Shown: positions 1-16,121 of the stretch, in pieces
Position numbering within the stretch: position 1 is the stretch's first letter
How the letters are laid out: each line of letters begins with the position of its first letter
From: Promethearchaeota archaeon
Lineage (GTDB): Archaea > Asgardarchaeota > Lokiarchaeia > Sigyniarchaeales > SOKP01
Length of the DNA: 41,811 bases
Assembly (NCBI GenBank): GCA_019058015.1
Contig: JAHLWH010000183.1
Coordinates: forward strand, 1 to 41,811
Reading direction: 5' to 3'
The notes under the pieces: generated by a model
Seen by the model: the letters and a program-made list of their open reading frames with translations, nothing else
Told to the model about the DNA's origin: nothing
Database searches by the model: none
Program-made: the position numbers and the translations under genes

Positions 1-261
1 ATTACCGATATCTATTTTAATATTTTCAAGCGTTTGTTAAATTTGTGGTCTTTTTGTTATATCCGCTTTGTTTGTCTTAATACGTCCAATATTTAAATAT
101 TTATCAAAATCTTTATTTGCTTTTTTTTTTTCCTCAGAAATATCAATTACTTCAACCTTTGCGCCATAATCACAAATAACAACAGAAAATTGCAAACCAA
201 GCTGGCCAAAACCGCCAGTAACAATAGCAACTCTATCATCCAATCTAAACAGATCTTTCAA
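1..261 (-). pseudogene. SDR-family oxidoreductase N-terminus, interrupted by an in-frame TAA; runs off the window edge
   Basis: Rossmann motif VAIVTGGFGQLG and ADIT. After the TAA at 37-39 the frame continues with SDR-like QTLENIKIDIGN, indicating a nonsense mutation (likely GAA>TAA) or a sequencing error. Confidence 0.75.
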
Positions 262-779
262 AACTTATTCTCCTTTATATTTGATTTTGTTTTATATATC
301 ATTTCACAAAATTCTCTTACAGCGCCATATCCACCTGCTTTTTTAAGAATTAAATTAGAAGCTTTTTTAACATAAGGAAATGCGTCTCCTACAGCAACAC
401 CCATTCCTAAATAATTCATACATTTGATATCATTAATATCATTACCAACAAAAGCCGCATTATCAGGAGATATTTTTTTCTCATCAAGAATTTCCTCAAG
501 TAGCGCAAGTTTATTCTCTACTCCAGAATAACAATCTATTCGGAGTTTCTCTGCTCTTTTTTCTACAACCTTATTGACCTCAGATGATATTATCAGAAAA
601 TCAACTCCAACCTCCTTGAGCATTTTTAAGCCATATCCATCACTACGGTTGGACATCACACATTCTACGCCATTTTCATTAGTAAAAACAAAATTGTTGG
701 TAAAAACTCCGTCAAAATCAAAGAAGACTATTTTTAGATTTTTAATTTTTTTTTTAAGTTTAAAATGAGAAAATTTCAT
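258..779 (-). CDS. KdsC/YrbI-family HAD phosphatase (probable nonulosonate-9-phosphate phosphatase)
   Basis: HAD motif FDFDGVFT, DGYG, GNDIND and the C-terminal GGYGAVREFCE typical of the KdsC family; adjacent to neuB. Confidence 0.88.
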   Translation of the reverse strand: MKFSHFKLKKKIKNLKIVFFDFDGVFTNNFVFTNENGVECVMSNRSDGYGLKMLKEVGVDFLIISSEVNKVVEKRAEKLRIDCYSGVENKLALLEEILDEKKISPDNAAFVGNDINDIKCMNYLGMGVAVGDAFPYVKKASNLILKKAGGYGAVREFCEMIYKTKSNIKENKF

Positions 780-781
780 AA

Positions 782-1837
782 TTATTCTAAATCATCTAAT
801 TTTATTTCTTCTTCTACTTTGAGAGAAACTTTTAGCTTTTTACCTATTACTCTATTAAGATAATATGGTGGTAGTCCTCCGGCAGGCGTCTTTATAGTAA
901 TATCATTCTCTGTTATTATAGTCCCCTTTTCAAGATCTTTAGAAGTGTATATGCTCTTACCCATTTTTTTTCTTGCCTCTTTTTCACAATCCATAATAGT
1001 TTTGTTTGCATTACCCAGAGATATTTCGATTCTTTTAAGATCCCTTATCTGTTTTCTAAGACCTTCAGGTTCCAAAGAAAATTTATGATCTGTCCCCTTC
1101 CATGAATGATTTAATGTAAAGTGTTTTTCAAAGACTACTGCTCCCATCATATAGGCAAGAACAGGTGCAAGTATCCCGTTATCATGGCCAGAGTAGCCTA
1201 TAATAGCATCAGGAAATTCTTTCTCCAACTTTTTGATAACTTTAAGATTTAAATCTTTATATTCGGTTGGATATCTAGAAGTACAATGAAGCAAACATAT
1301 TTTATCATTATATTCTCTAACAGCGTGATAAGCTATTTTAATTTCTTCAAGAGTAGAAGCCCCGGTTGAAATAAAAAGCGGTTTATTTAATTTTGCTACA
1401 TATACTAGAAGTGGTATATTTGTTAGGTCACCTGATGATAATTTAAAACTTGTTATCCCAAGATCTTCTAAAAAATCTACACTATCATGTTCAAATGGAG
1501 TACACATAAATTCAATATTATTTTCTTTAGCGCATTTCATAAGTTCTTTATACTCATCTACTCCGAACTCAAGATATTCCCTGTGTTCACCGTATGTATA
1601 ACCATAACTATTTTCATTATCATACAATCTGTTATAATAAGATTTAGTGAATAGTTTTTTGTTATTGCGTTTTTGAAATTTTACGGCATCAGCTTCAAAA
1701 AGCGCTGCAATCTTAATCATCTTTTTAGCTATTTCAAGATCCCCCTGATGATTATGCCCTATTTCAGCAATAAAAAAAGGTGGACCTTCGGTTGAAATTC
1801 TGCTTTTACCGAATTCTATAATTTTTTGAGCGGTCAT
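782..1837 (-). CDS. neuB: N-acetylneuraminate/nonulosonate synthase (NeuB family) with C-terminal SAF/AFP-like domain
   Basis: IAEIGHNHQG, DAVKFQK, LLHCTSRYP, GYSGH, EKHFTL, GTDH motifs. Confidence 0.93.
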   Translation of the reverse strand: MTAQKIIEFGKSRISTEGPPFFIAEIGHNHQGDLEIAKKMIKIAALFEADAVKFQKRNNKKLFTKSYYNRLYDNENSYGYTYGEHREYLEFGVDEYKELMKCAKENNIEFMCTPFEHDSVDFLEDLGITSFKLSSGDLTNIPLLVYVAKLNKPLFISTGASTLEEIKIAYHAVREYNDKICLLHCTSRYPTEYKDLNLKVIKKLEKEFPDAIIGYSGHDNGILAPVLAYMMGAVVFEKHFTLNHSWKGTDHKFSLEPEGLRKQIRDLKRIEISLGNANKTIMDCEKEARKKMGKSIYTSKDLEKGTIITENDITIKTPAGGLPPYYLNRVIGKKLKVSLKVEEEIKLDDLE

Positions 1838-1879
1838 TATTTTTTCTTAGAATTTTTTATTTTTTTAAATTTTATAATC

Positions 1880-2731
1880 TTATTTATCTATTTTTTCAAA
1901 AATATAATCAAATATTGGACTTTTACCATGCTGATTTTTTTGAATTATTTTAAATTTATATTTTTCTAATAAATTACAAATCCTAATTGTATCCGCGGAA
2001 TTAATATCTATCTCAACTTGAATTGTTTTTAATAATTTACTACTTAAAATTTTATTTGCACCTTTTAATATATAAAACTCATGACCATCAACATCTATTT
2101 TTAAATGATTTGGTAAATCTAAATTCATTTTAGTAACAATATCGTCTAAAGAATATTTAAATATCTTTTGTGAAAAAACAAAATTTTTTCTGTATTGCGA
2201 AGTATAACTTTCTTTATTAATTCCAGGGTGTTCTGCAGAACCGCTAAAAATACTATTGTATTTAAATTCATCAATTCCAGAAGTGTCTGACAAAGTTATA
2301 TTTAGTGGAATTATTTTTTCATGAAAATTATTTAAATATATATTATAACAAAGGTTTTTAAAAGTACTGAAGCCAGGTTCAAATGAATAAATTTTACATT
2401 TTCCGGAAGTGTTAATATATGCAACAAATGAGTAGGCTCCAATGTTAGCTCCAATGTCATAAAAAACATCATTTTCCTTAATAAAATCTTCTATCCATTT
2501 AACAGTTTTAGGTTCCTTTTTACATGAGTTAAGGCGATAAAGCACCCTTGTTGAATCAACATGAATTTTTATTAATTTATTTTTGTAATCTAAATATCCA
2601 ATATTATTATTTAAGATAGAACTTAATATATTGGTTCTCCATGTTAATGGCAAAAAATTCACTATTCTATCGTTAAGAAAGATTATTCTAAAAAAATTAT
2701 ACACTCTTTTAAATAGAGCTTTTATTATCAT
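1880..2731 (-). CDS. FkbM-family SAM methyltransferase
   Basis: FYDIGANIGAYS, SFEP, LKIDVDGHEFYILKGA motifs. Confidence 0.9.
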   Translation of the reverse strand: MIIKALFKRVYNFFRIIFLNDRIVNFLPLTWRTNILSSILNNNIGYLDYKNKLIKIHVDSTRVLYRLNSCKKEPKTVKWIEDFIKENDVFYDIGANIGAYSFVAYINTSGKCKIYSFEPGFSTFKNLCYNIYLNNFHEKIIPLNITLSDTSGIDEFKYNSIFSGSAEHPGINKESYTSQYRKNFVFSQKIFKYSLDDIVTKMNLDLPNHLKIDVDGHEFYILKGANKILSSKLLKTIQVEIDINSADTIRICNLLEKYKFKIIQKNQHGKSPIFDYIFEKIDK

Positions 2732-2816
2732 AATAGAAATATATATTTTCTACGAACTAATAATTTATATTGATTTAAATATTTTAATATCATTTAATTT
2801 GAGAAGAATGGTAAAA

Positions 2817-3236
2817 TTATAGCAATAAAAAGTCAATCAAAATTCTCTTTAGTTGTCGTACAACATTAAAAAATATCTTTAAATCTAAGAAATTCTTCCT
2901 TTTTATTGGTTTAAACCTTTTTTCAAATAATTTAATTTCTTTATAATTTTTAATTACTTGTAAATGCATTTCGCTAGAACTTCTGGATCCAAAATAAACA
3001 CGAATCATTTGACTTTCTAATTCAAAATTTTTTGCATCTACCTTAATACTTGAGATCTTCACTGTCGGATAATCGATTTCCATAAAATTTATTCCTCCAA
3101 ATGCGGCTGCATATTGATCTTGTACGCCACTTTCTAAACTAAGCTCTTCTATTTCGAGTTTATATGCGAATTCTGCTATTTGATAAGGATCAATCAAGGC
3201 AACAGCAATACTAGAACTAGCGCTTATTAATTTCAT
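2817..3236 (-). pseudogene. Fragment of a GHMP sugar kinase (HddA/heptose-7-phosphate kinase-like)
   Basis: SSSIAVAL and SGVQDQYAAAFGGINFME are GHMP-kinase motifs. The N-terminal domain with the GSGLG loop and the C-terminus are absent, and a short internal deletion appears to follow VALI. Confidence 0.75.
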
Positions 3237-3332
3237 TTATTCTATATTTACTTATTGATTTTATAAATATTTTACTAAGCTAAACAATTAAAGTAAATCT
3301 TTTTAAATATGTTAAAGATTACAAATCTGATC

Positions 3333-4958
3333 TTAATCTTTTTCTTTACTTGGGAAAAATCTGATTAAGACTTTGGATATGTTTTTATTAAGCCCTTTTA
3401 GGTTTCTTGAGAAGATGTCTCTACTAAGTAGTTCATTTATTTCTTCTTTAGTAATTGTCTTAGTAACATAAATTATAAGATAAAAAACAATGAAAAAAAC
3501 ACCCAATTCTATTGAATCTTTTAAAATCCTTTTAAAAATATCATGAATTAAAAAATTCTCAAAATTAATAAGATTTAAAATAAAAAATGAAAATATTAAA
3601 GAGATTAACAAACTAATTAAAAATAAAATTAGCATCTTTAATATCGGCCAAATTTTTAAATTTACCTCTTTAACACTTCTAGTTTTAAAAATTAACCAAT
3701 TAACAAATAAATTAAAAAAAGAGAATAAAACCACAAATATTATATAGCCTGAAAAACCCCAAAAATAAATTACAAATAATGAAAAAAGAAGGTCTAATAT
3801 TCTTAATATAATATCTCTTTTAAATATTAATTTCGGTTTATTGATTGAAACCAAAATTGCATTTAAATAACTATAAAGTATAAATGCAAACCCATCAAAT
3901 AACAGAATCTGAATAAAAAAAGCTATCAATAGATAATTTTCAGTATAAATTAACAAAATATATACATCAATGAAAAAAAATAAAATAGCTGAAATAATGC
4001 AGTGTATTAAAATACCATATTTTGAAATCATATAAACAGTATATTCCAACTTTTCATATTGTTTTTTTGCACTTAATTCCGAAAAAATAGATAATAATGG
4101 AGTACCTGAAGCTCCAGATGCTTGAAGTGCAAAATTTCTACTGTTTCTACTTATTTTGTAATATGTCAAATATTCAGGACTTCCAGAATAAAATAAAAAA
4201 TTCTGCTTTATATAAAGTACCCCTTGACTAACAGAGCTTGCCACCTGGAAATATATTCCAAATTCTTTAGAAATTTTAAATACTTGCCTAATATTTAATA
4301 GATTATTCTTTTTCTTAGCCTTCGGTACAATCCTAATAATGAAAATTATTGAGAAAAATACTGGAATTAAATATGAAAGAACATTAGCAAGTGATAATAG
4401 AATAATTGGATTTTCGGGAGAATTAAAAAAAATTATTGTATATAGAGCAAGGAGTAATAGAATTCTAGAGAGGTTTATAATAGCTACTTCTTTAAATTTA
4501 TAAAAACCTCTTAAAGTAAATGCACATGTGTTTATCATTATTTCAAAAACAATAATAGGAGAGAGAATAACGTAAATTTGAAAAAGAATATTTTGATTAA
4601 TGAAAATTATAAAAATTAGGAAAATGATAATCCAACAAACCAATGAGATTAATAATCTTAAAAATAAAATACTATAAATCAAGCTTCTAAGTTTATCTAT
4701 CTCATTTTTATAATTATATTGAGGGATATATTGATTTAATATTAAATTTGCAGCAGGCGGGAAAAATGCAAATAAAATACCAAGGATTGAAACCGTATAT
4801 AGACCTAATATAAGAAATGCCCAGCTTTCTTCTGATAGTAATCTAGCTATAAAAAATGAAGATAGAATTGTTATGAAAAAGGATCCATAAGTTTGTATAA
4901 TGGTATAAAAATTTCCTTTTATAATTTTTTCAGAGGTTGATTCTTTAGGTTCATTCAT
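3333..4958 (-). CDS. Polysaccharide/oligosaccharide flippase (Wzx/MOP superfamily)
   Basis: About 12-14 hydrophobic segments, N-terminal 'KIIKGNFY...FFIARLLS' pattern; located in the glycan cluster. Confidence 0.8.
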   Translation of the reverse strand: MNEPKESTSEKIIKGNFYTIIQTYGSFFITILSSFFIARLLSEESWAFLILGLYTVSILGILFAFFPPAANLILNQYIPQYNYKNEIDKLRSLIYSILFLRLLISLVCWIIIFLIFIIFINQNILFQIYVILSPIIVFEIMINTCAFTLRGFYKFKEVAIINLSRILLLLALYTIIFFNSPENPIILLSLANVLSYLIPVFFSIIFIIRIVPKAKKKNNLLNIRQVFKISKEFGIYFQVASSVSQGVLYIKQNFLFYSGSPEYLTYYKISRNSRNFALQASGASGTPLLSIFSELSAKKQYEKLEYTVYMISKYGILIHCIISAILFFFIDVYILLIYTENYLLIAFFIQILLFDGFAFILYSYLNAILVSINKPKLIFKRDIILRILDLLFSLFVIYFWGFSGYIIFVVLFSFFNLFVNWLIFKTRSVKEVNLKIWPILKMLILFLISLLISLIFSFFILNLINFENFLIHDIFKRILKDSIELGVFFIVFYLIIYVTKTITKEEINELLSRDIFSRNLKGLNKNISKVLIRFFPSKEKD

Positions 4959-5118: not shown

Positions 5119-8100
5119 TTATTCTTTTTTAAATTGAAATTCTATTGACTTAATATCTCTAGCTTTTAATTTGATATTACAATATGGACAATTTAATTCA
5201 ATTTTATCCTTTAATTTTGAAATTATATTATCTTTTAAAGAAGCCAAACAATCTTTATTTGGACAAATGTTTAATGTTTCAATTACTTTCTCTTTATCTC
5301 TTGTTAAATCACCGAAACTAATTTCAAGATTTTTGGCAGTTACCTTATCTGAAATGGTATCTTTATTTTTTTCAATATATTCCTTTAAAAATTGAGCGTT
5401 TGTTCCAATCGTTAAAGATATTTTTTCTCCTACTTTAAAATTGTTTTTTTTCCGAGAAAATTGAATATTTCTTACTAAATCATTTACCACGCGCTCAGCT
5501 AAGAGTTCTTCATCAAGGCTAATATCCAAATAAATATTACATAGTTTTGATTCTGCCTTAAGGAGATTTTTTGTTGGCTTTATAGATTTAACAATCTCTA
5601 ATTCTTTAACATTTCCCATTTGTTTTATTACATCTGGGAATATAATCTCCGGCATCCCATCTTTGGGTTCAATTATTATTTTTCTATTTGGCCATCTTAA
5701 CCTAATTTTATGTTCATCTTTTATAGAACGGATGATTTCTATCAGATCTCTCGTAAATTGCATTTTTTCTTCTAATTCCAAATCAATTACTTCTCCTTTG
5801 ACTTCCGGCCAGTCTTGCAAGTGAATGCTCTTAGTTTCCCCTAAACCCATTGATTTAAGAAATGGTTTAAACATTTTTAGGAAAATTTCTTCACTTAACA
5901 TTGGATTTATGGGAGCTAGTAATAAAAGAACTTTAAATAACACATCGAACAGCACAGCCATAATTTGAAATTTGTTTGGATCCTCGGAATATAATTCAAT
6001 TTTCTCCCGGTTTAGCATTATGTACCACCGGCTAATATCATTTACTATTAGATCTCTCAGTTGCTGTGTAATCCACGGAAGTTTATACTTATCAGATAGT
6101 TCTGTAACATTTTTAATTGTAGAATTTACTCTTGAAAGTAGCCATTTATCTAATTTGTTTAATCTTTCTATATTGATTTCCACTTTTGAAGGATCAAATT
6201 TGGCTAAAGTAAATTTCTCATTTGCATACACATAGATATTCCAGAGTGTATTAATGATTTTATAAGTATCTGTATATTCTTTTACGCTAAAATTTAAATC
6301 ACGACCGGGTTGGGTCGCACCAATTGAATAAAAGCGAAAAGTTTCAATTCCCTTAATATCGGAATATTTTTTATTATTTTTTATTTCTTTTAGAGTTCCA
6401 TTAATGAGATCTTCAGGGCCGAAAAAAGTTCCACGCGATTTACTTAATTTTTGATTATCTCTTAATACCCAACCGTGCATATAACAAGCATCATAATTTT
6501 TACGTTTAGATGAAACCATTGCACTACATAAAAGACTATTAAACCATCCTCTAATCTGGTCCTTTCCTTCTATAATAAAATTTGCTGGAACCCATGTATC
6601 ATAATGTCTTTTTCCATCATAAACTTCTTGAGCTGCCCACATTACAGAGCCAGAATCTAACCAAACATCTAAAATATCAGGTATTCTTTTTTTAGTTCCT
6701 ATTTTGCATTTTTCACATTTCCAGGTAACCTTATCGATCCAAGGACGATGTAAATCTTCAGGACATTCTCCAGCAATTTCTTTCAATTCTTTTCCTGAAC
6801 CAATTACAGTAGTATCACTACAATCTTCGTTATCACAGATCCAAACACTCAAAGGAACTCCCCAGAATCTTTGCCTTGAAATACACCAATCTTTTAAAGA
6901 ACTTAACCAACTTTTAAACCATCTATTTCCAGCCCAATCAGGAACCCAGTAAATTTCCAAATTTTTTTCTAACATTTCAGAAATAAGAGGTTCAGTTTTA
7001 AAAAACCATTGGTCTGTTGCTCTATACACTAATTTTGAATCGCATCGCCAGCAATGTGCATATTCATGCTCTATTTCATTCGTTAATAAAAGTGTTCCTT
7101 TTTCCTTCAATAAATCTAATATTTCTTGATTGGCATCAAAAACAAATTGTCCTTCAAATTTTCCTGCTTCTTTTGTATATATCCCTCTAATATCAACAGG
7201 TGTAAAAACTGGTATATTATTAGCCACACCAACCTCAAAATCTTCTGGTCCATGTCCTGGAGCAGAATGTACCAATCCCACACCTTCTGATGCAGAAACG
7301 TATTCATCTGATAAAACAATCGAATGAACTGTATCACTTTCTTTAGCTAATTCTTTTTGATAGGGAACCTCTTCTAAAAGTGGATGGATATATTTCATCC
7401 CTTCAAGGGCTTCACCCTTATATTCCTCCACAATCTTGAATTTATATCCCAACTCTCCAGTTATAACAAAAGTTGAGGAGCTTTTTGATAAAATCCAATA
7501 TTCATTTAAATCTTCAATTTTAACTTTCACGTATTCAGCATATGGATTTGCCATAATTGCTTCATTAGCAACTAAAGTCCAAGGGGTCGTTGTCCAAATA
7601 ATAAAATAGGTGTTTTCCATATCAATGGATTTGAGTTTTAAGAATAAACTTACATCCTTAATATTTTTATAATCGAATTCATGTTTGGCTAAAGCGGTTG
7701 CACATCTCGGGCAGCAATTTTGGGGTCTATAAAATCTATATAGTAAGTTATTCTCCCATGCTTTCTTTAATGTCCACCAGATACCTTCGAGATAACTATT
7801 TTTTAAAGTGATATATGGATTGTCCCAATCCCAAAAATAACATCCTAATCGTTTAAATTGTTCATTCATAATTACACGATTGTCTTCAGCAAATTTCTTA
7901 CAATTTTTAATGAATTTATCTACTCCATATTCGAAAATTTCTTGCTTATTTTTAATTCCTAGTTGTTTTTCCATTTGGACCTCAATGGGCAATCCATGAG
8001 TGTCATATCCTGGAGTATCTGTAACCTTAAACCCTTTCATTCGTTTATATCTAATTAGATAATCTTTCAATATCTTATTCCAAGCGGTTCCAAGATGAAT

Positions 8101-8256
8101 TGACCCGGTAGTATAGGGAGGTCCATCAATAAATCTCCAAGTTTCTCTACCTTCTTCTTTTTTTCTTATTAAGGAATATATATTCTCCCTTTTCCAATAG
8201 TCCAGTATTTTTTCTTCTAATTTTAATAACTCCAACTTTTTATCCAATGTTTCCAT
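5119..8256 (-). CDS. ileS: Isoleucine--tRNA ligase, archaeal/eukaryotic type
   Basis: DGPPY, HIGH-like HLGT, GYDTHGLPIE, WTTTPWTL, DWCISRQRFWG, EGKDQIRGWF, KLSKS. Confidence 0.97.
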   Translation of the reverse strand: METLDKKLELLKLEEKILDYWKRENIYSLIRKKEEGRETWRFIDGPPYTTGSIHLGTAWNKILKDYLIRYKRMKGFKVTDTPGYDTHGLPIEVQMEKQLGIKNKQEIFEYGVDKFIKNCKKFAEDNRVIMNEQFKRLGCYFWDWDNPYITLKNSYLEGIWWTLKKAWENNLLYRFYRPQNCCPRCATALAKHEFDYKNIKDVSLFLKLKSIDMENTYFIIWTTTPWTLVANEAIMANPYAEYVKVKIEDLNEYWILSKSSSTFVITGELGYKFKIVEEYKGEALEGMKYIHPLLEEVPYQKELAKESDTVHSIVLSDEYVSASEGVGLVHSAPGHGPEDFEVGVANNIPVFTPVDIRGIYTKEAGKFEGQFVFDANQEILDLLKEKGTLLLTNEIEHEYAHCWRCDSKLVYRATDQWFFKTEPLISEMLEKNLEIYWVPDWAGNRWFKSWLSSLKDWCISRQRFWGVPLSVWICDNEDCSDTTVIGSGKELKEIAGECPEDLHRPWIDKVTWKCEKCKIGTKKRIPDILDVWLDSGSVMWAAQEVYDGKRHYDTWVPANFIIEGKDQIRGWFNSLLCSAMVSSKRKNYDACYMHGWVLRDNQKLSKSRGTFFGPEDLINGTLKEIKNNKKYSDIKGIETFRFYSIGATQPGRDLNFSVKEYTDTYKIINTLWNIYVYANEKFTLAKFDPSKVEINIERLNKLDKWLLSRVNSTIKNVTELSDKYKLPWITQQLRDLIVNDISRWYIMLNREKIELYSEDPNKFQIMAVLFDVLFKVLLLLAPINPMLSEEIFLKMFKPFLKSMGLGETKSIHLQDWPEVKGEVIDLELEEKMQFTRDLIEIIRSIKDEHKIRLRWPNRKIIIEPKDGMPEIIFPDVIKQMGNVKELEIVKSIKPTKNLLKAESKLCNIYLDISLDEELLAERVVNDLVRNIQFSRKKNNFKVGEKISLTIGTNAQFLKEYIEKNKDTISDKVTAKNLEISFGDLTRDKEKVIETLNICPNKDCLASLKDNIISKLKDKIELNCPYCNIKLKARDIKSIEFQFKKE

Positions 8257-8401
8257 GAAAATTATCTACTTCTTTATGTTAATTGTTTATTATAAGAGAA
8301 TTAGATTAAAAAATTTAATCAAATCTTATAAAAAGATTAGATTTGAATTATAGAATTTAACATTTTCTAAAAAACTAATTTAAAAAATGATGACTTTCAT
8401 T

Positions 8402-10048
8402 TTACGGCATCATATGTGGAGGCGGAGTTTTTAAACAAAATCCACATTTACCAAATGAAGAAATTGTTTGATCCCAACAATGTTTATGATATAATCTCTC
8501 ACAATATGGACATTCCGTTCGACATTGATTATCATCAGCAGACGCAATAGGTAATTTACATGCACCGTCTGGACATTGAATTTGATGACAAATTACACAT
8601 GAAATAACCGAAACTTCAAAAATCTTTTTAGATATCGTGTTAAATAAATCAATTAGATATGTAAAAGGCGTCCAGTCATCAAAGAATTGCTGAATAGATG
8701 TTTCCAGTTTCTTTTTTATTGGCTCGTGGATTTTATCTTCAAATTCATTTAATACTTTAAGTTCGGGAGGATTCATAGGATAATTTGGGGGTAAAATTGC
8801 TTGAAATTCAAAAATAATATTCTCGGTTTTCATTTTACCTTTCATTTTCAGATTAATTGTATTTGTGAAAGCGTCAAATTGAAGCTCATCAATGCCACCT
8901 TTTAATAAATTAATCTCAAAATTTACTCTCGAATTTTTATCAACTAGCCAAGATATTTCTCTTAAAATGTCCACTACTTCTGATTGTTTAGGTATCCAAC
9001 TATTGATAGAGTCTAACTTGGAAGGAGAAATTTGTATTAAACTATTTAATTCTGGGCTGTAATGCAAAACGGGTGGGTTTGGATATTTACTAATATCTAC
9101 CTCTAAATCGTATTCTTTAAATCCATATGTAAGTAAATGAACATTCAACTTTGAAATGTTTCCCTCTATTGGTTCAGCTTGATATTCTCCTGATATTTTT
9201 TTGAATTGAACTTCAATATCTTTTACGAAAAATAATTTATTTTCGATTTCTCGTATTAACTCTACAATATGTGGAGGTGATTTTGAGTTCCATTTTTTAA
9301 GCAAATTAAGTACTTTCTTTGGTTCTCCTAAAAGATTTATTACTTCTTCTGGAAATGTAATGATGGGTTTTTCAGGGTAGTTATTGAAATCAATCTCGAT
9401 GATAAATGTTTTTTCTAAGGTAATTGTGAGATACACGTTGATATCTGCTTTATTTTTTTCTTTTTGATCAATTGGATATTCCATTTGGATTAATCCTAAT
9501 TCTGTAATGACTTCTAAAGGCATAGTAAATGCTTCTTCAGTAAAAGATTGCATTTCTGGTTTTGGAGATTGAAAAGATTCCTCCTTCGGTTTTTCTTCTT
9601 CATAATAGTCAGGAGTAATGAATGAGTCTTGTTGAAGAGATATTTCTTCTGCAGGATATTTGGAATAATCTGGAGTAATATACTCTTCTAATTTTTCAAC
9701 AGGAGGTTGAATAGGACCTAAATCTTCTACAATTTTTGCCGTTCCACTTAAAGCACTTTGAATTTTATCTTTTAATTCTTTTATTATATCAACAACTCTT
9801 GAATCAGGAGTCCAATTCTTTATTTTATCAAGATTTATATCTCCTAATAAATCTTTTATCTCTTGATGAAGTATTATTTGAGGAGGGGCATGAGGAAAAG
9901 TTTCATCAAATTTCACCTCTATAATGAATTTTTGTTTTGAGGTTTCATATACAGCTCCATATAAATGAGCAATATTTCCAGATACCATCCAAAAAGAAAA
10001 TTGTGATGCGATAATTTGAGCTTCTTTTAAAATTCTCTGCTTTTCCAT
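8402..10048 (-). CDS. Four tandem catalytically inactive UBC-like (UEV/RWD) domains plus C-terminal C4HC3 RING; putative FANCL-like E3 ligase
   Basis: Four repeats with (F/Y)Pxx(x)P and W...(V/I/L)(V/I)(D/E) signatures: FPHAPP, YPEKP, YPNPP, YPMNPP. No Cys occurs before the RING. RING pattern CVIC...CPYCx4Hx2C...FGKCGFC. Confidence 0.75.
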   Translation of the reverse strand: MEKQRILKEAQIIASQFSFWMVSGNIAHLYGAVYETSKQKFIIEVKFDETFPHAPPQIILHQEIKDLLGDINLDKIKNWTPDSRVVDIIKELKDKIQSALSGTAKIVEDLGPIQPPVEKLEEYITPDYSKYPAEEISLQQDSFITPDYYEEEKPKEESFQSPKPEMQSFTEEAFTMPLEVITELGLIQMEYPIDQKEKNKADINVYLTITLEKTFIIEIDFNNYPEKPIITFPEEVINLLGEPKKVLNLLKKWNSKSPPHIVELIREIENKLFFVKDIEVQFKKISGEYQAEPIEGNISKLNVHLLTYGFKEYDLEVDISKYPNPPVLHYSPELNSLIQISPSKLDSINSWIPKQSEVVDILREISWLVDKNSRVNFEINLLKGGIDELQFDAFTNTINLKMKGKMKTENIIFEFQAILPPNYPMNPPELKVLNEFEDKIHEPIKKKLETSIQQFFDDWTPFTYLIDLFNTISKKIFEVSVISCVICHQIQCPDGACKLPIASADDNQCRTECPYCERLYHKHCWDQTISSFGKCGFCLKTPPPHMMP

Positions 10049-10128: not shown

Positions 10129-11028
10129 CTATAAATTTTTATGCTCTTTCATAAAATTTAGACCTTCATCTAAATTGAAGATTTTCAATTTATTTCCTAA
10201 TATTTTTTTGAGCTTAGATATATTGAGTGAAGCATTTTTTGGTCTAATGGCTTTTTGTTTAAAAAAATCAATTGGGTGGATTAATTTTTGTGAAAAACTA
10301 AAAATTTCAGCACATTTTACTGCAATTTCATATCGACTTAGTGCATAATCTCCAGCAGTATGAATGATCCCTGATTTATTATAATCAATTAAATGGAGTA
10401 AAATTTCCGCCAAGTTATTTGCTAAGGTTGGTGAATTTATTTGTTCAGTAACAATATTTATTTTATTACCTTTTTCTAGATTATTTAATATCCAAGTTAT
10501 GAAATTTTGCCTATACGGATACCAACCATACAAAACAGCAGTTCTACAAATCAAATAATCAACTCTTGTTTTTATAATGCGTTTTTCACCTTCAAATTTC
10601 GTTTTTGCATAGTAGCTTAATGGCTTCGGTTCATCAATTTCTGAATAATCTCCTTTTTTCCCGTCAAATACAAAATCTGTTGAGAGGACTATTATTTTTG
10701 AATTAATTTCCCTACATCCTAAAGCTACATTTTCAGGACCAAGAATATTTAAATCATGAGCGAGTTTCTTCTCATCTTCACATTTATCAACATCAGTATA
10801 GGCTGCAGTTAAAATAACAGTATCTGGGTTTATTTTTTTTATAGTCTCGATAGTTTTTTCCTTATTTGTTATATCAATTCTCTGAAAATCAATTTCTTTT
10901 GGGATTGTATTGTTTTGAATGTCTGCAGCAATTGGAATAAATTTATGGCTGTAGAGTTCATTTTGAATATAGTAAATTAATTTACTCCCTAAAAACCCAT
11001 TTGCTCCTATTAATAGAACTTTTTGCAA
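10129..11028 (-). CDS. rfbD: dTDP-4-dehydrorhamnose reductase
   Basis: GANGFLG, AAYTDVDKCE, STDFVFDG, YAKTK; TTG start. Confidence 0.93.
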   Translation of the reverse strand: MQKVLLIGANGFLGSKLIYYIQNELYSHKFIPIAADIQNNTIPKEIDFQRIDITNKEKTIETIKKINPDTVILTAAYTDVDKCEDEKKLAHDLNILGPENVALGCREINSKIIVLSTDFVFDGKKGDYSEIDEPKPLSYYAKTKFEGEKRIIKTRVDYLICRTAVLYGWYPYRQNFITWILNNLEKGNKINIVTEQINSPTLANNLAEILLHLIDYNKSGIIHTAGDYALSRYEIAVKCAEIFSFSQKLIHPIDFFKQKAIRPKNASLNISKLKKILGNKLKIFNLDEGLNFMKEHKNL

Positions 11029-11059
11029 GATTTCTTAAAACCAATTTTACGTAAAATTT

Positions 11060-12082
11060 TTAACGATCCTTATACATTTCTTCATAATATTTGAGATACT
11101 CTTCATTGACTATATGTTCTAACCAATCTTGATTTTGTAAATACCATTGTACTGTATCTTTTAATCCATCTTCAATATTGGTTTTTGGTTCCCAAGATAA
11201 CTCATTTTTAATTTTATTAAAATTAATAGCGTATCTTAAATCATGCCCAGGTCGGTCTTTTACAAATTTTATTAGAGTTTCTGGTTTATTTAAAATAGAT
11301 AAGAGCTTTTTAACTAAATCTAAATTTGAAATTTCAGAATTCCCTCCAATATTATAGATCTCTCCAGAAATTCCATGCTTTAAAACTAAATATATAGCTT
11401 CACAATGATCTTCTACAAAAATCCAATCTCTAATATTTTGTCCGGTTCCATAGATTGGTAATTCTTGATTATTCATCGCGTTGTTGATCATTAAAGGTAT
11501 TAATTTTTCAGGAAATTGATAAGGACCGTAATTATTTGAAGAACGGGTGATATTGACTGGTAAATTGAAAGTTTTAAAATATGAGCGGACGATTAAATCT
11601 GCCGATGCTTTACTTGCAGAATAAGGGCTATTTGGTTTTAGTAGTAGGTCTTCAGTAAAAGCAGGATCTTTAAAATTTAATGATCCATAGACTTCATCGG
11701 TCGAGATTTGGATAAATTTTTTAATTTTTAATTTTTTTGCTACGTTCAATAAAGATTGAGTTCCTAAGATATTTGTTTTTATGAAAATATCTGGATTATC
11801 AATAGACCTGTCTACATGTGATTCTGCCGCAAAATTTACTAGATAATCGACATTTTCATAGTTTACGATTTCTAAAATATGTTCAAAATCACAAATATCG
11901 CATTTATAAAATTTATATATTTTCTCATCAAAACCTTCAAATTCTATTAGATTTTCGGGATTTCCAGCATATGTTAAATAATCTACATTAATTATTCTGT
12001 ATTCTTTTTGATTTTTTAACATATAGTGAATAAAATTGCTCCCAATGAAGCCCATACCGCCTGTTATTAAAATATTTTTAAT
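11060..12082 (-). CDS. rfbB: dTDP-glucose 4,6-dehydratase; start extended to ATT at 12082
   Basis: FAAESHVDRSI, STDEVYG, PYSASK, DRPGHD. The Rossmann motif (I)KNILITGGMGFIG begins upstream of the ORF-track ATG. Confidence 0.93.
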   Translation of the reverse strand: MKNILITGGMGFIGSNFIHYMLKNQKEYRIINVDYLTYAGNPENLIEFEGFDEKIYKFYKCDICDFEHILEIVNYENVDYLVNFAAESHVDRSIDNPDIFIKTNILGTQSLLNVAKKLKIKKFIQISTDEVYGSLNFKDPAFTEDLLLKPNSPYSASKASADLIVRSYFKTFNLPVNITRSSNNYGPYQFPEKLIPLMINNAMNNQELPIYGTGQNIRDWIFVEDHCEAIYLVLKHGISGEIYNIGGNSEISNLDLVKKLLSILNKPETLIKFVKDRPGHDLRYAINFNKIKNELSWEPKTNIEDGLKDTVQWYLQNQDWLEHIVNEEYLKYYEEMYKDR

Positions 12083-12130
12083 AAAATACCACCTGTTAAC
12101 AAAATCTTTTTTTTATAAATAATTAATAAA

Positions 12131-12169
12131 TTTCATACATTCTAAATTTTTTTCATACATTCTAAATTT
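12131..12169. repeat. Tandem direct repeat, 2 copies of TTTCATACATTCTAAATTT at 20-bp spacing
   Basis: Read directly: tttcatacattctaaatttt tttcatacattctaaattta, between rfbB and the inserted gene. Confidence 0.85.
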
Positions 12170-12272
12170 ATATTATTAAAGAAATGGAGAACTTGTATTA
12201 ACTTTAATTAAAAGATATATATCTTCAGAATTATTGAAACGTAATTTCTATTAAATATAAAACTTTATTCAA

Positions 12273-14255
12273 TTACTTTAAACTCTTTTTTTGTTCTCTT
12301 AAATATTTTATGAGAGAATTTAGAATTAGAACAGATTCAAGAGAGTGATTTTTAAAAAGTATTATTATTTTAGACAATTCTTTTCGTTGCTTATGCTCTA
12401 ATTGTGTTAAAAGATCCTTAGCTCTTCTATATATTGTTATCTTTGAAGCATTAATTTTATTTCCAATTTTCATAACATTTATTGGTTCATTAAAATATTT
12501 GGTACATAAATAAATTGCACCAGTGGCAATTCCTTTGAGGTTTTTCTTTCCAATAGAAAACCTGTTATTCATTGCATTTTCAACCAATTTTATAGCGATC
12601 TTCTTTACTATAGGTGATAAACTAAAATCATCAACAAATTTATCTATATACTTCTTAATTTTATCAATTCTTTTTATGGGAAAATTTTTGTAAGAGAAGG
12701 AATCAAGAGTAATTTGTTTTTTTTTAGTTTGGAGATCAGAATATAATAAATCCGCCATTTTATTATCTTTTATATATTTAATAAACTCCCTATTCCCAAA
12801 ACAATATTTTTCCTTTAATAAAATCTTGCTTGCACTTGCTAATTCAGCTAATTCCATTCTAGAGTGAGAATTGTATAATGCACTATTAGCTAATTCTACC
12901 ACATGATTAAATTCATCTAATAATTTCCCTTCAAAACCCATAAAATCAGCAAATTCTTTATGGTTTAAGATTTTGATATGTTCTCTAAAAAATATCTTGA
13001 CATCTCTCGGAATTTCTTGATGTAATCTTTTTGATGCACCCAACGGGACTAAAATTAACATTTTTTCCTTTCCTTGATAACCTCTTTGACATTTCCTGAT
13101 TGCTTTTTTCATAGAATATCCAATATAAAAATCCACATTTATTTCTTTAATTTCTTCTTTTATTTTTTTAATCACATTTTGTTTAGATTCGATTGCACCT
13201 TTAAAAACTTCATTTCTCATAATAGTTAAATCAGGAGCCTTTGTGTTATCTCTTAAACTTGTTTTAGATTCTATAAAAGTATTACATTCCAAATTTCTCG
13301 TATGTTCTATACAAATCCTCTCAACACTCCAATGGGTATTTTTACCCGCTTCTATTGTAATATCAAAATTATTAGGAAAATATCCAAGTTTTTCTTCGAC
13401 CTCAGAAATTCTTATTCCTCTTTTATTAAATGCAGATAATATACTAGTGTGTCCATATTTTATGAATTGTTCTAAGGTTGGTACTTGCCTTTTTCCAAGT
13501 TTAATTCCTTCTAAATTAAATAATTTATTTTTTACATCTTTTATAACTGGTTCTAAAAAATCTGGTGCGCTTTGGCTATTCAAATCCTTATATTTTTTGT
13601 GATCGTAAAGATTTTCATAACCCAACTTTCTAAACATATTATTTAAAGTAATTCCTTTTGTATAGGCTATAGTTAATAAGCTTCCATAACCACATTGGGT
13701 AATTTGATCTAAAGTGGGCGCTTCTTTGATTCCAAGTGGTGCTTGATTGTGTATTTTTCTTTTCTTGTTGATTTTATTTACTACATCTTCGATAATTTTT
13801 TTAAATATATCTGGTGCTGTATTTTTATTTAAATCCCTATATTTAGTATCCCGTACAACTTCTCGAGATTCTAAACCATATTCTTTCACTTTCTTTTGTA
13901 CAACATCAGGTTGTATTGTCAATCCTTCTATTTCCTCCATTTTTGAGATTTTGTTTGTAGTGTAATTAGTGCTCTTAAGCTAATGGATAATATATTTCTC
14001 AATCCATTTCTCACTATTAATTATTTTAATTTTATATAATAATTCTTCTTTTTCATTAGGTTTGAGCTTTTCATAATTTTTTACAAATTTCTTGAAATCA
14101 GGTCTTAGTATAAAACCATAATTGACATGGCCATACTTCTTATCTTCACAGTTAGAATATTCTTTATATAAAGTTGTTAATTTAGGATATAATAAGTTAT
14201 TATCAAAAATTTTTTCATCAAATTTCTTCTCAATTTCAGGTAGAAAATCGTTCAT
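12273..14255 (-). CDS. About 660-codon gene: HTH-like segment, two ~75-aa repeats, putative PD-(D/E)XK nuclease and C-terminal TFIIB cyclin-fold domain; one in-frame TAG at 13980-13982 (possible pseudogene)
   Basis: ORFs 13980..14255 and 12273..13940 share a frame and are joined by an open linker (*LKSTNYTTNKISK-M). Repeats KY(R/K)DLN..APD...PTL(D/E)Q...KLGY. GKNTHWSVE...PDLTI...VDF. C-terminus YIDKF..GKKNLKGIATGAIYL..SKITIYRRAKDL resembles TFB repeat 2. Confidence 0.6.
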
Positions 14256-14881
14256 TTTTTAACGTGTTCCAATTAAAACTTCCTACATTTTTCTACAGAA
14301 ACATTAATAATTTTTAACATATAACTTAATTGACCTTAACAATTTTTAATAAAATAGATTATCACAAATTCTGCCTTTTGTTAAATCCTTATCATCTCAG
14401 AAAAAATAAAATCCTTATTTTTAATTGGATACTTCTTCCTCTTTTTAGTTTTTTGAAAACTTTTATATTCCTTTATTATCTATTCGGAAAAGAAATTTGT
14501 AATCCCGTAAAATTTACAATACAATTAAATAATCGATATAATTCATTATTTACTTTAATAACACTTTTAATATAACACCTACGTTTTTTAGCATCTCTGA
14601 AAAATTAATTTCAAAAATCTCTTATTTCATAAATCGATGATAGGTATTTTTTTATCTCAACATTTGATGAGATAGTTCGAATCATCTAAAAATTGCTATT
14701 ACTAAAATATATTTGATTCTAAGTACTGCATAAAAAAAGGTTAAGAAAAATTTTTTCAATCAAAGATATAACGCTTTATTTCGCGCAAAAAAAGCTTAGT
14801 GAGGTCCAAAACTTTTTTAATTTTTATAACTGATATATCTTTAGATTTTCAGATTGGTTTCTCCCTTTTTCCTTTTATATT

Positions 14882-15346
14882 TTAACCCATTTTAATTTCC
14901 CAATCATAACCTATTTCTTTTGCATTATATGGTAATCGATATTCATCCGGATTATCATAATTATAAAGCTCCGTTGGACAATTCAAAATTACAGCTTCTT
15001 TTCCTCCAATAGCTTTAAATCCATGCCAAACATGATTGGGAATAGTTAATAATATCGGATTTTTCTCCCCAATAAAAAATTCATTTATCTTTTTATACGT
15101 AGATGAGTCCTTGCGATTATCACATAAAACAACTTTAGCATTTCCCTTAATACATATAAAATTATCTGTTTGAATTTTATGATAATGCCACGCTTTAACT
15201 ACATTCGGATAACCCATTGTAATATATGCTTGCCCAAATTTTTTAAATGTAGGCCAATCCGATCTAAAACATTCCATTAAATACCCTCTTTCATCTGGAA
15301 TTACATTAAGCTTTTTTACTTTGACATCTTCTATTAAACCTTTCAT
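14882..15346 (-). CDS. rfbC: dTDP-4-dehydrorhamnose 3,5-epimerase family cupin
   Basis: DERGYLME, KAWHYH, IPNHVWHGF. Confidence 0.9.
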   Translation of the reverse strand: MKGLIEDVKVKKLNVIPDERGYLMECFRSDWPTFKKFGQAYITMGYPNVVKAWHYHKIQTDNFICIKGNAKVVLCDNRKDSSTYKKINEFFIGEKNPILLTIPNHVWHGFKAIGGKEAVILNCPTELYNYDNPDEYRLPYNAKEIGYDWEIKMG

Positions 15347-15380
15347 AATTTATTTCTCAATCCCTTAAATGTTATTTAAT

Positions 15381-16121
15381 TTATTCTTTATTCAATTGAT
15401 TTTTTATAAAATTGCTACATTTCAATAAAGTCTTAAAAGTTCCTGCATCAGACCAAAATCCTTTAAAAATTTTAGATTTTGTTTTTCCTTTTTTTATATA
15501 ATAATTATTAACATCGGTTATTTCTAATTCTCCCCTTGTTGAATAACCAATCTCCTTAATTACATTTTCAATTATGTTAAAGACATTCTCATTATAAAAA
15601 TATAATCCGGTAACGCATAGGTTTGATTTTGGCTCTTTAGGTTTCTCTTCTATTTTCAAAATCTTCCCGTCTTCATCAATTTCTGCAACCCCAAATCGTT
15701 CTGGATCAGTTACTTCTTTTAAAAATAACATACATTCCCAATCGTTGGAATTTTCAAATTCTTGAACCTCCTCCTTAAAATTATCTTCAAAGATATTATC
15801 ACCTAATATAACAGCGATTCTGTGACCTTTTACTATGTGTTTTGTTAAATTTAGTGCCTCAGCAATCCCACCAGCACCTTCTTGATAAACATAACTAAAC
15901 TTTGCCCCAAATTCTTTTCCATCACCTAGTAATCTAATAAAATCTCCAACGCTTTCTCCACCTAAGACAATTACGATATCATTTATTCCTGAATTAGTTA
16001 AAGTTTTTATTACTTTATATATCATAGGTTCATTATAAACCGCCAATAAATGCTTATTGGTTACTTTTGTTAATGGAGACAATCGAGAACCAGTACCACC
16101 AGCTAATATAACTCCTTTAAT
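15381..16121 (-). CDS. rfbA: Glucose-1-phosphate thymidylyltransferase; start extended to ATT at 16121
   Basis: The frame upstream of the ORF-track start reads (I)KGVILAGGTGSRL. Also NKHLL, LGDNIF, EEKP, RGELEITD, WSDAGT. Confidence 0.92.
   Translation of the reverse strand: MKGVILAGGTGSRLSPLTKVTNKHLLAVYNEPMIYKVIKTLTNSGINDIVIVLGGESVGDFIRLLGDGKEFGAKFSYVYQEGAGGIAEALNLTKHIVKGHRIAVILGDNIFEDNFKEEVQEFENSNDWECMLFLKEVTDPERFGVAEIDEDGKILKIEEKPKEPKSNLCVTGLYFYNENVFNIIENVIKEIGYSTRGELEITDVNNYYIKKGKTKSKIFKGFWSDAGTFKTLLKCSNFIKNQLNKE

Follow-up and report, generated by a model that had tools for sequence, protein, structure and literature searches.

The window, a stretch of 41,811 nucleotides from a Promethearchaeota archaeon of the Lokiarchaeia (assembly GCA_019058015.1, contig JAHLWH010000183.1), encodes on its minus strand, at positions 8402-10048, a protein of 548 amino acids in which four predicted folds of the ubiquitin-conjugating enzyme (E2) type, termed D1 to D4 below, precede a predicted C-terminal RING domain, and which is probably a stand-alone ubiquitin ligase (E3). 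The coordinates given by the initial annotation, made from the sequence alone, were correct: the open reading frame is intact and starts with ATG. The features of the gene and its conserved downstream neighbour are as follows (pLDDT, predicted local distance difference test):

8402..10048, minus strand: whole gene, pseudo-E2 array plus predicted three-zinc RING, 548 residues (open reading frame, homologues, AlphaFold model)
9746..10048, minus strand: D1 (residues 1-101), Cys-less UBC fold (Pfam UQ_con, E 6.8e-6; VIA Z 11.4 to an E2)
9521..9745, minus strand: acidic linker, predicted disordered (residues 102-176; pLDDT < 50 over residues 103-174)
9653..9682, minus strand: linker motif aromatic-x-T-P-D-x-x-x-Y-P (residues 123-132; P126, D127 and P132 invariant in 58/58 homologues)
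9230..9520, minus strand: D2 (residues 177-273), Cys-less UBC-type fold, homologous to D1 and D3 (VIA Z 8.6 to BRISC-SHMT2 chain 6r8f_G)
8936..9229, minus strand: D3 (residues 274-371), Cys-less UBC-type fold (VIA Z 8.7 to UBE2S)
8606..8935, minus strand: D4 (residues 372-481), RWD domain directly before the RING (Pfam RWD 23.6 bits, cut-off 22.8)
8435..8599, minus strand: RING (residues 484-538), C4HC3 with ligands C484, C487, C513, C516, H521, C524, C535 and C538
8480..8575, minus strand: predicted third zinc site of RBX1/RBX2/APC11 type, C492, C497, C509 and H523 (RBX alignments, co-occurrence)
5119..8256, minus strand: ileS (isoleucine-tRNA ligase), conserved downstream neighbour (NCBIfam TIGR00392 above cut-off)

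Each of the four repeats contains the turn motif Y/F-P-x-x-(x)-P (F51-P52..P56, Y224-P225..P228, Y322-P323..P326 and Y423-P424..P428), followed by one Trp (W79, W253, W351 and W459, respectively); the motifs and tryptophans had been recognised in the initial annotation, and the turn prolines and tryptophans proved to be invariant in 58/58 aligned homologues. Its assignment of the repeats to the UBC/RWD class agrees with the AlphaFold model (mean pLDDT 77), in which every repeat consists of a helix, a three- or four-strand meander and further helices, and with the matches of all four to UBC/RWD/UEV structures by VIA (Z 11.4, 8.6, 8.7 and 11.7 for D1 to D4). The number of repeats stands, but their spacing is uneven: one fold, a 75-residue acidic linker, and three further folds. 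Likewise, the reported absence of Cys from the repeats holds for the studied protein (none within residues 1-483) but not family-wide, since Cys occurs N-terminal to the RING in 92 of 121 close homologues, for the most part in the opening strand of D3 and away from the E2 catalytic position.

By sequence, D1 is the most E2-like fold; its profile matches the E2 family of the genome itself at E 7e-9, and it lacks both HPN and the catalytic Cys. An active E2 was ruled out for any of the four folds (no Cys in residues 1-483, D1 without HPN); the pseudo-E2 folds cannot themselves form a thioester. Profile-profile similarity between repeats was above chance for D2-D3 (E 1e-13), D1-D2 (7e-11), D1-D3 (3e-9) and D1-D4 (4e-6), and was not significant for D2-D4 and D3-D4 (E 0.22 and 0.16); the mutual homology of D1 to D3 suggests local duplication. 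D2 alone gave no Pfam match, and no NCBIfam model matched the 548-residue protein. In the AlphaFold model, a single long helix (residues 358-382) connects D3 with D4, as in double-RWD modules. The closest structures to D4 by VIA were RWD domains of the SEA complex (Z 11.8), RWDD1 (11.4) and GCN2 (11.0), ahead of those of Listerin (8.8) and FANCL (7.7). The linker between D1 and D2 measures 68-124 residues across the family, with a mean of 27% Asp/Glu and a column conservation of 0.45 versus 0.71-0.80 in the domains. The strict pattern of its motif is present in 109 of 120 full-length homologues, the remaining 11 having near-variants; it is a candidate docking or autoinhibition motif.

The C4HC3 ligand pattern of the RING was confirmed: all eight ligands are invariant in the 58 aligned homologues, with the spacing C-x2-C-x4-H-x2-C in the core, and are predicted to bind two zinc ions in a cross-brace. 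A model of D4 plus RING from a deeper alignment reached a pLDDT of 90 (88-97 in the RING; metal-free model). The third zinc raised by the initial annotation is likely, although not with the His that it had pointed to: H488 is probably not a ligand, being replaced in distant members that bear the insert, and the most likely ligands are C492, C497, C509 (57/58) and H523, all conserved. Binding of a third zinc by this inserted Cys3His site is considered likely because the four extra ligands co-occur in the family RINGs and align with those of RBX1/RBX2. Among 54 family RINGs, the CxxC insert and both partner ligands occur together in 46, three have three of the four residues, and five lack the insert and both partners; the count leaves out P0157 and P0165 (pattern misfit) and the near-duplicates P0272-P0282, and its kin are not independent. 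On a UBC-core tree of 31 rows, computed by a quick method and with long branches in places, at least two changes of insert state are needed, one of them inside the query's own clade. Some family members have Cys for His at the last position of the third site, as in RBX2. RBX1 coordinates its extra zinc through three Cys and one His (PMC5462531), and the three-zinc RING class also appears in PMC3166285.

Comparison of single domains and domain pairs with known structures gave different nearest matches. The profile of the RING retrieved RBX1/RBX2 in all of its first 25 PDB rows (E 1.2e-5 to 2e-3), followed by APC11 (E 0.012) and, far lower, Listerin (E 0.57); FANCL was not among the 60 shown of 64. 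As a single sequence, the zinc domain also found RBX1 first (E 0.055). FANCL_C and Listerin clusters were nearest to the RING in the ESM Atlas (0.85-0.87, leads only). For D4 and RING together, the best match was Listerin both by profile (E 7e-6) and by Foldseek (E 1.3e-5, 175 columns, rank 1; FANCL 1.5e-3), and the Foldseek alignment runs through the Listerin RING. For D3 and D4 together, Knl1 (Z 10.5, root-mean-square deviation (rmsd) 3.6 Å) and the central domain of FANCL (3zqs; Z 9.8, rmsd 6.2 Å) were tied within 1 Z by VIA.

A protein search yielded 341 relatives, the best 120 of which share 49-93% identity and are nearly all full length; those with names are mostly labelled Promethearchaeota or Lokiarchaeota. 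At E < 1e-40, the profile of 58 sequences detected the protein in its own genome, in 43 of 68 other genomes of the family, in 1/7 sister-family genomes and in 2/2 further genomes of the class, and in none of 223 other genomes of the phylum; the gene is also present in 5/5 additional genomes of the order. The protein family is hence class-restricted (Lokiarchaeia-type) and patchily distributed. The cluster of one distant member (P0167) is labelled Thermoplasmata, i.e. outside Asgard. Distant relatives consist of D2-D3-D4-RING only (351-434 residues), D1 being missing, or possess an extra N-terminal RING; the retention of D2-D3-D4-RING in them marks this unit of three folds and RING as the shared core. 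In P0143, P0148, P0165 and P0167, the pseudo-E2 array is flanked by a RING on either side. The three-zinc RING of the family further occurs in fusions with proteins of beta-helix (NosD-like) and leucine-rich-repeat type (L034, L035; P0176-P0178, P0181, P0192, P0201).

The genome (94% complete) contains one canonical E2 with HPN and catalytic Cys intact, a gene for a ubiquitin-like protein that ends in Gly-Gly plus one residue, an activating enzyme (E1) type ThiF protein encoded some 750 bases away from the E2 gene, and five JAB genes; the ubiquitin-like gene lies on contig G000:C40, E1 and E2 on G000:C195, and three of the JAB-domain genes (323-475 residues) lie within 16 kb of one contig (G000:C267; L152-L154). 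The sole E2 gene (L092:1501-2007 minus; G000:C195:38216-38722) has ATT at the conserved start behind a Shine-Dalgarno-like stretch, with no ATG, GTG or TTG, and a plain open reading frame caller cuts the E2 to 120 residues, against 169 from the ATT; as ATG, ATT, ATC, GTG or TTG occupy the same position in 30 orthologous loci, initiation at non-AUG codons is likely. Most genomes of the family have two E2s, those of the own genus one.

Genes of related architecture adjoin ubiquitin genes elsewhere. In G237 (L031), a relative with three UBC folds and RING lies directly upstream of an E1 gene, and in G047 (L046:4006-4884) a 293-residue protein with two UBC-like folds and a RING adjoins a JAB-ubiquitin-E2-E1 cluster. 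The latter protein has a two-zinc RING that weakly matches FANCL_C (E 0.0012) and looks more FANCL-like than the RING studied here. In G237 and G294, a second gene, for a protein with zinc ribbon and RING-like domains, comes directly after the gene for three folds and RING (L032:3856-6161, L033:4917-7298). Three further clusters (L041, L042, L045) comprise E1, a ubiquitin-like gene and a protein with zinc ribbon and a UBC-like domain that matches D3 at E 2e-12; two of them (L041, L045) also contain E2, two genes resembling those of small GTPases and a gene of JAB type. The PUA-domain gene that is universal in archaea (TIGR03684) adjoins the ubiquitin gene in the own genome (L083:874-1740), and is situated directly upstream of the gene for four folds and RING in G303 and G305 (L144, L145).

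At the locus itself, the gene lies outside any ubiquitin operon, as the initial annotation had stated for the window: no other ubiquitin, E1, E2 or DNA-repair protein was present among the 36 window proteins scanned. Upstream, on the same strand, are rmlD/rmlB-type sugar genes; downstream, ileS follows after 145 bases, also on the same strand. In 30 loci of the close family (1.5-kb flanks, some ending at contig ends), ileS was the sole recurrent neighbour and starts 81-375 bp downstream on the same strand in 14 of them. The flanking regions 258-4958 and 10129-16082 (minus strand) contain surface-glycan genes (NeuB, FkbM methyltransferase, MatE-like flippase, rmlA/B/C/D-type). At 12273-13940 (minus strand), among the rml sugar genes, a 555-residue protein is encoded in which only a C-terminal TFIIB repeat was recognised (E 3e-6). 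In the RNA data, one metatranscriptome held 5% of the words; its two short contigs map to 8187-8344, outside the RING gene. These contigs, from a size-fractionated metatranscriptome, span the gap before ileS and the first codons of ileS, and their region has no Rfam match; an Rfam scan of the whole window likewise found nothing. A scan for promoters and terminators with a bacterial model returned 7 promoter-like sites versus 12.6 expected.

Based on fold predictions, ligand pattern and family, the protein is regarded as a stand-alone RING E3 ubiquitin ligase that is not an orthologue of FANCL, with a probability of roughly two thirds; the E3 role put forward by the initial annotation thus counts as probable. 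It is favoured because D4 plus RING matches a known E3 module, the RWD-RING unit of Listerin, across both domains, and because the genome holds E1, E2 and ubiquitin-like genes and relatives adjoin E1/E2 genes; E3 activity in vitro has been shown for archaeal RINGs (PMC5654768, bioRxiv 2023.07.25.550441). If the protein works as FANCL and Listerin do, the ubiquitin-charged E2 would be recruited by the RING, and a substrate or partner complex would be bound by a rigid D2-D3-D4 arm; D1, on its long acidic tether, may offer a further binding site for ubiquitin, E2 or substrate, and one of the pseudo-E2 folds may be the docking surface of the conserved linker motif. The targets might lean to translation rather than DNA repair, as faintly hinted by the ileS and PUA neighbours and by the RWD matches to translation factors and Listerin.

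Several observations weigh against a ligase. The Foldseek superposition of D4 plus RING on Listerin is poor (template modelling (TM) score 0.39, rmsd 16 Å), and the VIA rows for this pair covered D4 only, with no RING of RBX1, FANCL or Listerin listed; the ranking of RBX1/RBX2 may have been lifted, as Cys-rich profiles can favour Cys-rich targets. RING domains that activate E2s usually carry a Trp four residues after ligand 6, a Pro after ligand 7 and a basic residue after ligand 8; the studied protein has T528, G536 and L539 at these positions, and Trp, Pro and basic residue are absent in the close family. The invariant Trp of the RING is W525, and a Pro after ligand 7 is present in six distant members. 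Ubiquitin genes were not adjacent in the 30 close-family loci (1.5-kb flanks), the genome encodes at least six other RING-like proteins against a single E2, and 25 of the 68 family genomes, some rated 99-100% complete, gave no match at E 1e-40. The occurrence of the RING on beta-helix and leucine-rich-repeat proteins suggests that this RING is a mobile ligase module whose binding domains have been exchanged.

The missing E2-contact residues speak for the main rival of the ligase, a non-catalytic scaffold or adaptor whose pseudo-E2 folds bind ubiquitin, E2 or partners in the manner of BRE/BRCC45 or kinetochore RWDs and whose zinc domain is structural or oligomerising. The high rank of BRCA1-A/BRISC chains and of Knl1/CENP-O in both fold searches points in the same direction, as does the binding of ubiquitin by Asgard UEV domains (bioRxiv 2023.07.25.550441). 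However, the invariance of the eight RING ligands in the close family, the hydrophobic position between the first two ligands (kept in 22 of the 25 members listed), the RWD-RING junction matching that of a working E3 and the position of relatives beside E1/E2 genes argue against this reading, and a scaffold is judged unlikely. A special case of the E3 reading, a Listerin-like ligase of translation quality control that tags nascent chains or ribosomal factors, would account for Listerin being the best match of D4 plus RING, for the similarity of D4 to the RWD domains of RWDD1, GCN2 and the SEA complex, for ileS following in 14/30 loci and for the PUA gene preceding in G303 and G305; an NFACT (Rqc2/NEMF-type) gene is also present in the genome. 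It is nevertheless improbable: the long N-terminal part of Listerin (chain of 1562 residues) is missing, the RING alone matches Listerin at only E 0.57, NFACT is little informative (11/14 control genomes have it), and housekeeping neighbours can be inherited synteny.

The architecture had been called FANCL-like, and the domain order bears this out: FANCL was the top match of the whole model in Foldseek (E 3.6e-8; next came BRCA1-A/BRISC chains, Listerin and Knl1, the long alignments having TM scores of at most 0.30), VIA pairs residues 185-548 colinearly with FANCL 6-369 (rmsd 21.6 Å), FANCL clusters are nearest after the family itself in the ESM Atlas (0.87, lead only), and the relatives with three UBC folds and RING (351-434 residues) share the domain count of FANCL. 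A specific link to FANCL did not hold, because the whole-protein match is poor (TM score 0.22-0.30, rmsd 21-23 Å) and any multi-RWD chain scores by domain count, because Knl1, Listerin and RBX match parts better or equally, and because no Pfam model of FANCL_d1/d2/d3 or FANCL_C scored above cut-off on the protein or its five parts (FANCL_d1 appeared weakly in 2/58 members, best E 0.029). Furthermore, FANCL was not among the 60 listed PDB sequence matches of any of four family profiles. The FANCD2/FANCI model PF14631 had no match in the genome, but none in any control genome either, which makes this negative uninformative. The protein is built like FANCL but was not recovered as a FANCL member by the tests that could be run. 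With D1 to D3 mutually homologous, which suggests local duplication, and a window without DNA-repair genes, a true FANCL orthologue that monoubiquitinates a DNA-repair clamp is very unlikely.

In the literature searched (subscription papers and bioRxiv supplements lie outside the searchable text), no paper was found that describes a layout of four such folds and a RING. Non-catalytic UBC domains in Asgard archaea were reported by Tromer et al. 2019 (PMC6601020), whose supplementary file 4 gives residues 7-86 and 398-478 of A0A0F8W9G2 as two separate rows; these rows carry the motifs of D1 and D4, i.e. a member of the present family was already contained in the 2019 alignment, whereas the four-domain plus RING layout is not described in the parts of that paper covered. 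It also places an Asgard sequence, which may be one of the A0A0F8W9G2 rows, at the base of eukaryotic RWDs. The main text of a 2026 structural-clustering preprint (PMC13734099), as far as covered, mentions no RWD, FANC or Listerin; its supplements may list the family. The archaeal RING E3s tested in PMC5654768 and bioRxiv 2023.07.25.550441 are small proteins encoded in ubiquitin operons. If the E3 reading of the present protein is true, a conserved ligase of 550 residues with its own multi-domain arm would mean that Asgard archaea possessed modular E3s able to select their substrates. The protein combines two features of separate eukaryotic ligases, the tandem-RWD-plus-RING order of FANCL/Listerin and the (predicted) third zinc site of RBX1/RBX2/APC11; with the two present in one archaeal protein, trees and reconstitution can test how each arose, and the single E2 of the genome renders the cognate cascade unambiguous. 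It is conceivable, if doubtful, that Lokiarchaeia keep a descendant of an archaeal ligase ancestral to both the RWD-RING E3s (FANCL, Listerin) and the three-zinc RINGs (RBX1, RBX2, APC11), with a multi-pseudo-E2 arm and an RBX-type RING on one chain and without cullins.

Among known systems, BRE/BRCC45 and the kinetochore double-RWD proteins (6gvw_C, 6h3c_C, Knl1 8q5h_K, CENP-O) share the tandem non-catalytic UBC folds but have no RING. The described archaeal small RING E3s differ in their location in ubiquitin operons and in the lack of a pseudo-E2 array. Prok-RING_1 (PF14446) resembles the RING in the core C-P-x-C-x3-Y-H-x2-C-W, with a weak match in 44/58 members (best E 0.00087); at its cut-off of 29.1 bits, there was no match on the 548-residue protein, and insert-less relatives reach 27 bits. 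A search for short stand-alone RING relatives, by a method that needs shared 5-residue words, gave 20 matches among 355 candidates, archaeal-type or unnamed and none of them named eukaryotic.

With FANCL (7kzp_L, 9a0j_L, 3k1l, 3zqs), the protein has in common three non-catalytic UBC folds, the last two of which share a long helix, followed by a C-terminal RING of C4HC3 type. FANCL binds its substrate through the double RWD and ubiquitin through the ELF domain (PMC5264512, PMC4951507), whereas no substrate or core complex was found for the archaeal protein, which has in addition the predicted third zinc site and, at the N-terminus, a fourth fold tethered by an acidic linker, and which superimposes poorly overall. 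RBX1, RBX2 and APC11 (1ldj_B, 9t7v_R, 8a3t_U) share the CxxC insert after ligand 2, the Cys twelve residues before ligand 5 and the sequence H-x-H-C or H-x-C-C, variants that separate RBX1 from RBX2 and that both occur in the archaeal family. In contrast to the C-x-H core of RBX, the archaeal core is C513-x2-C516, with R518 at the position of the RBX His; and whereas RBX proteins are cullin subunits of about 110 residues, the archaeal RING is fused to four domains and preceded by the predicted D4 helix, in a 94% complete genome without a cullin match. Finally, Listerin/Ltn1 (8aaf_e, 9ofv_e, 9gy4_F) resembles the protein in the direct succession of RWD and RING and in the spacing C-x2-C-x4-H-x2-C; it differs in that its single RWD comes after an N-terminal part of great length (approximately 1400 residues) and in that it has no CxxC insert in the alignment. 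Where Listerin has this ribosome-binding N-terminal part, the archaeal protein, of 548 residues in total, has three further pseudo-E2 folds.

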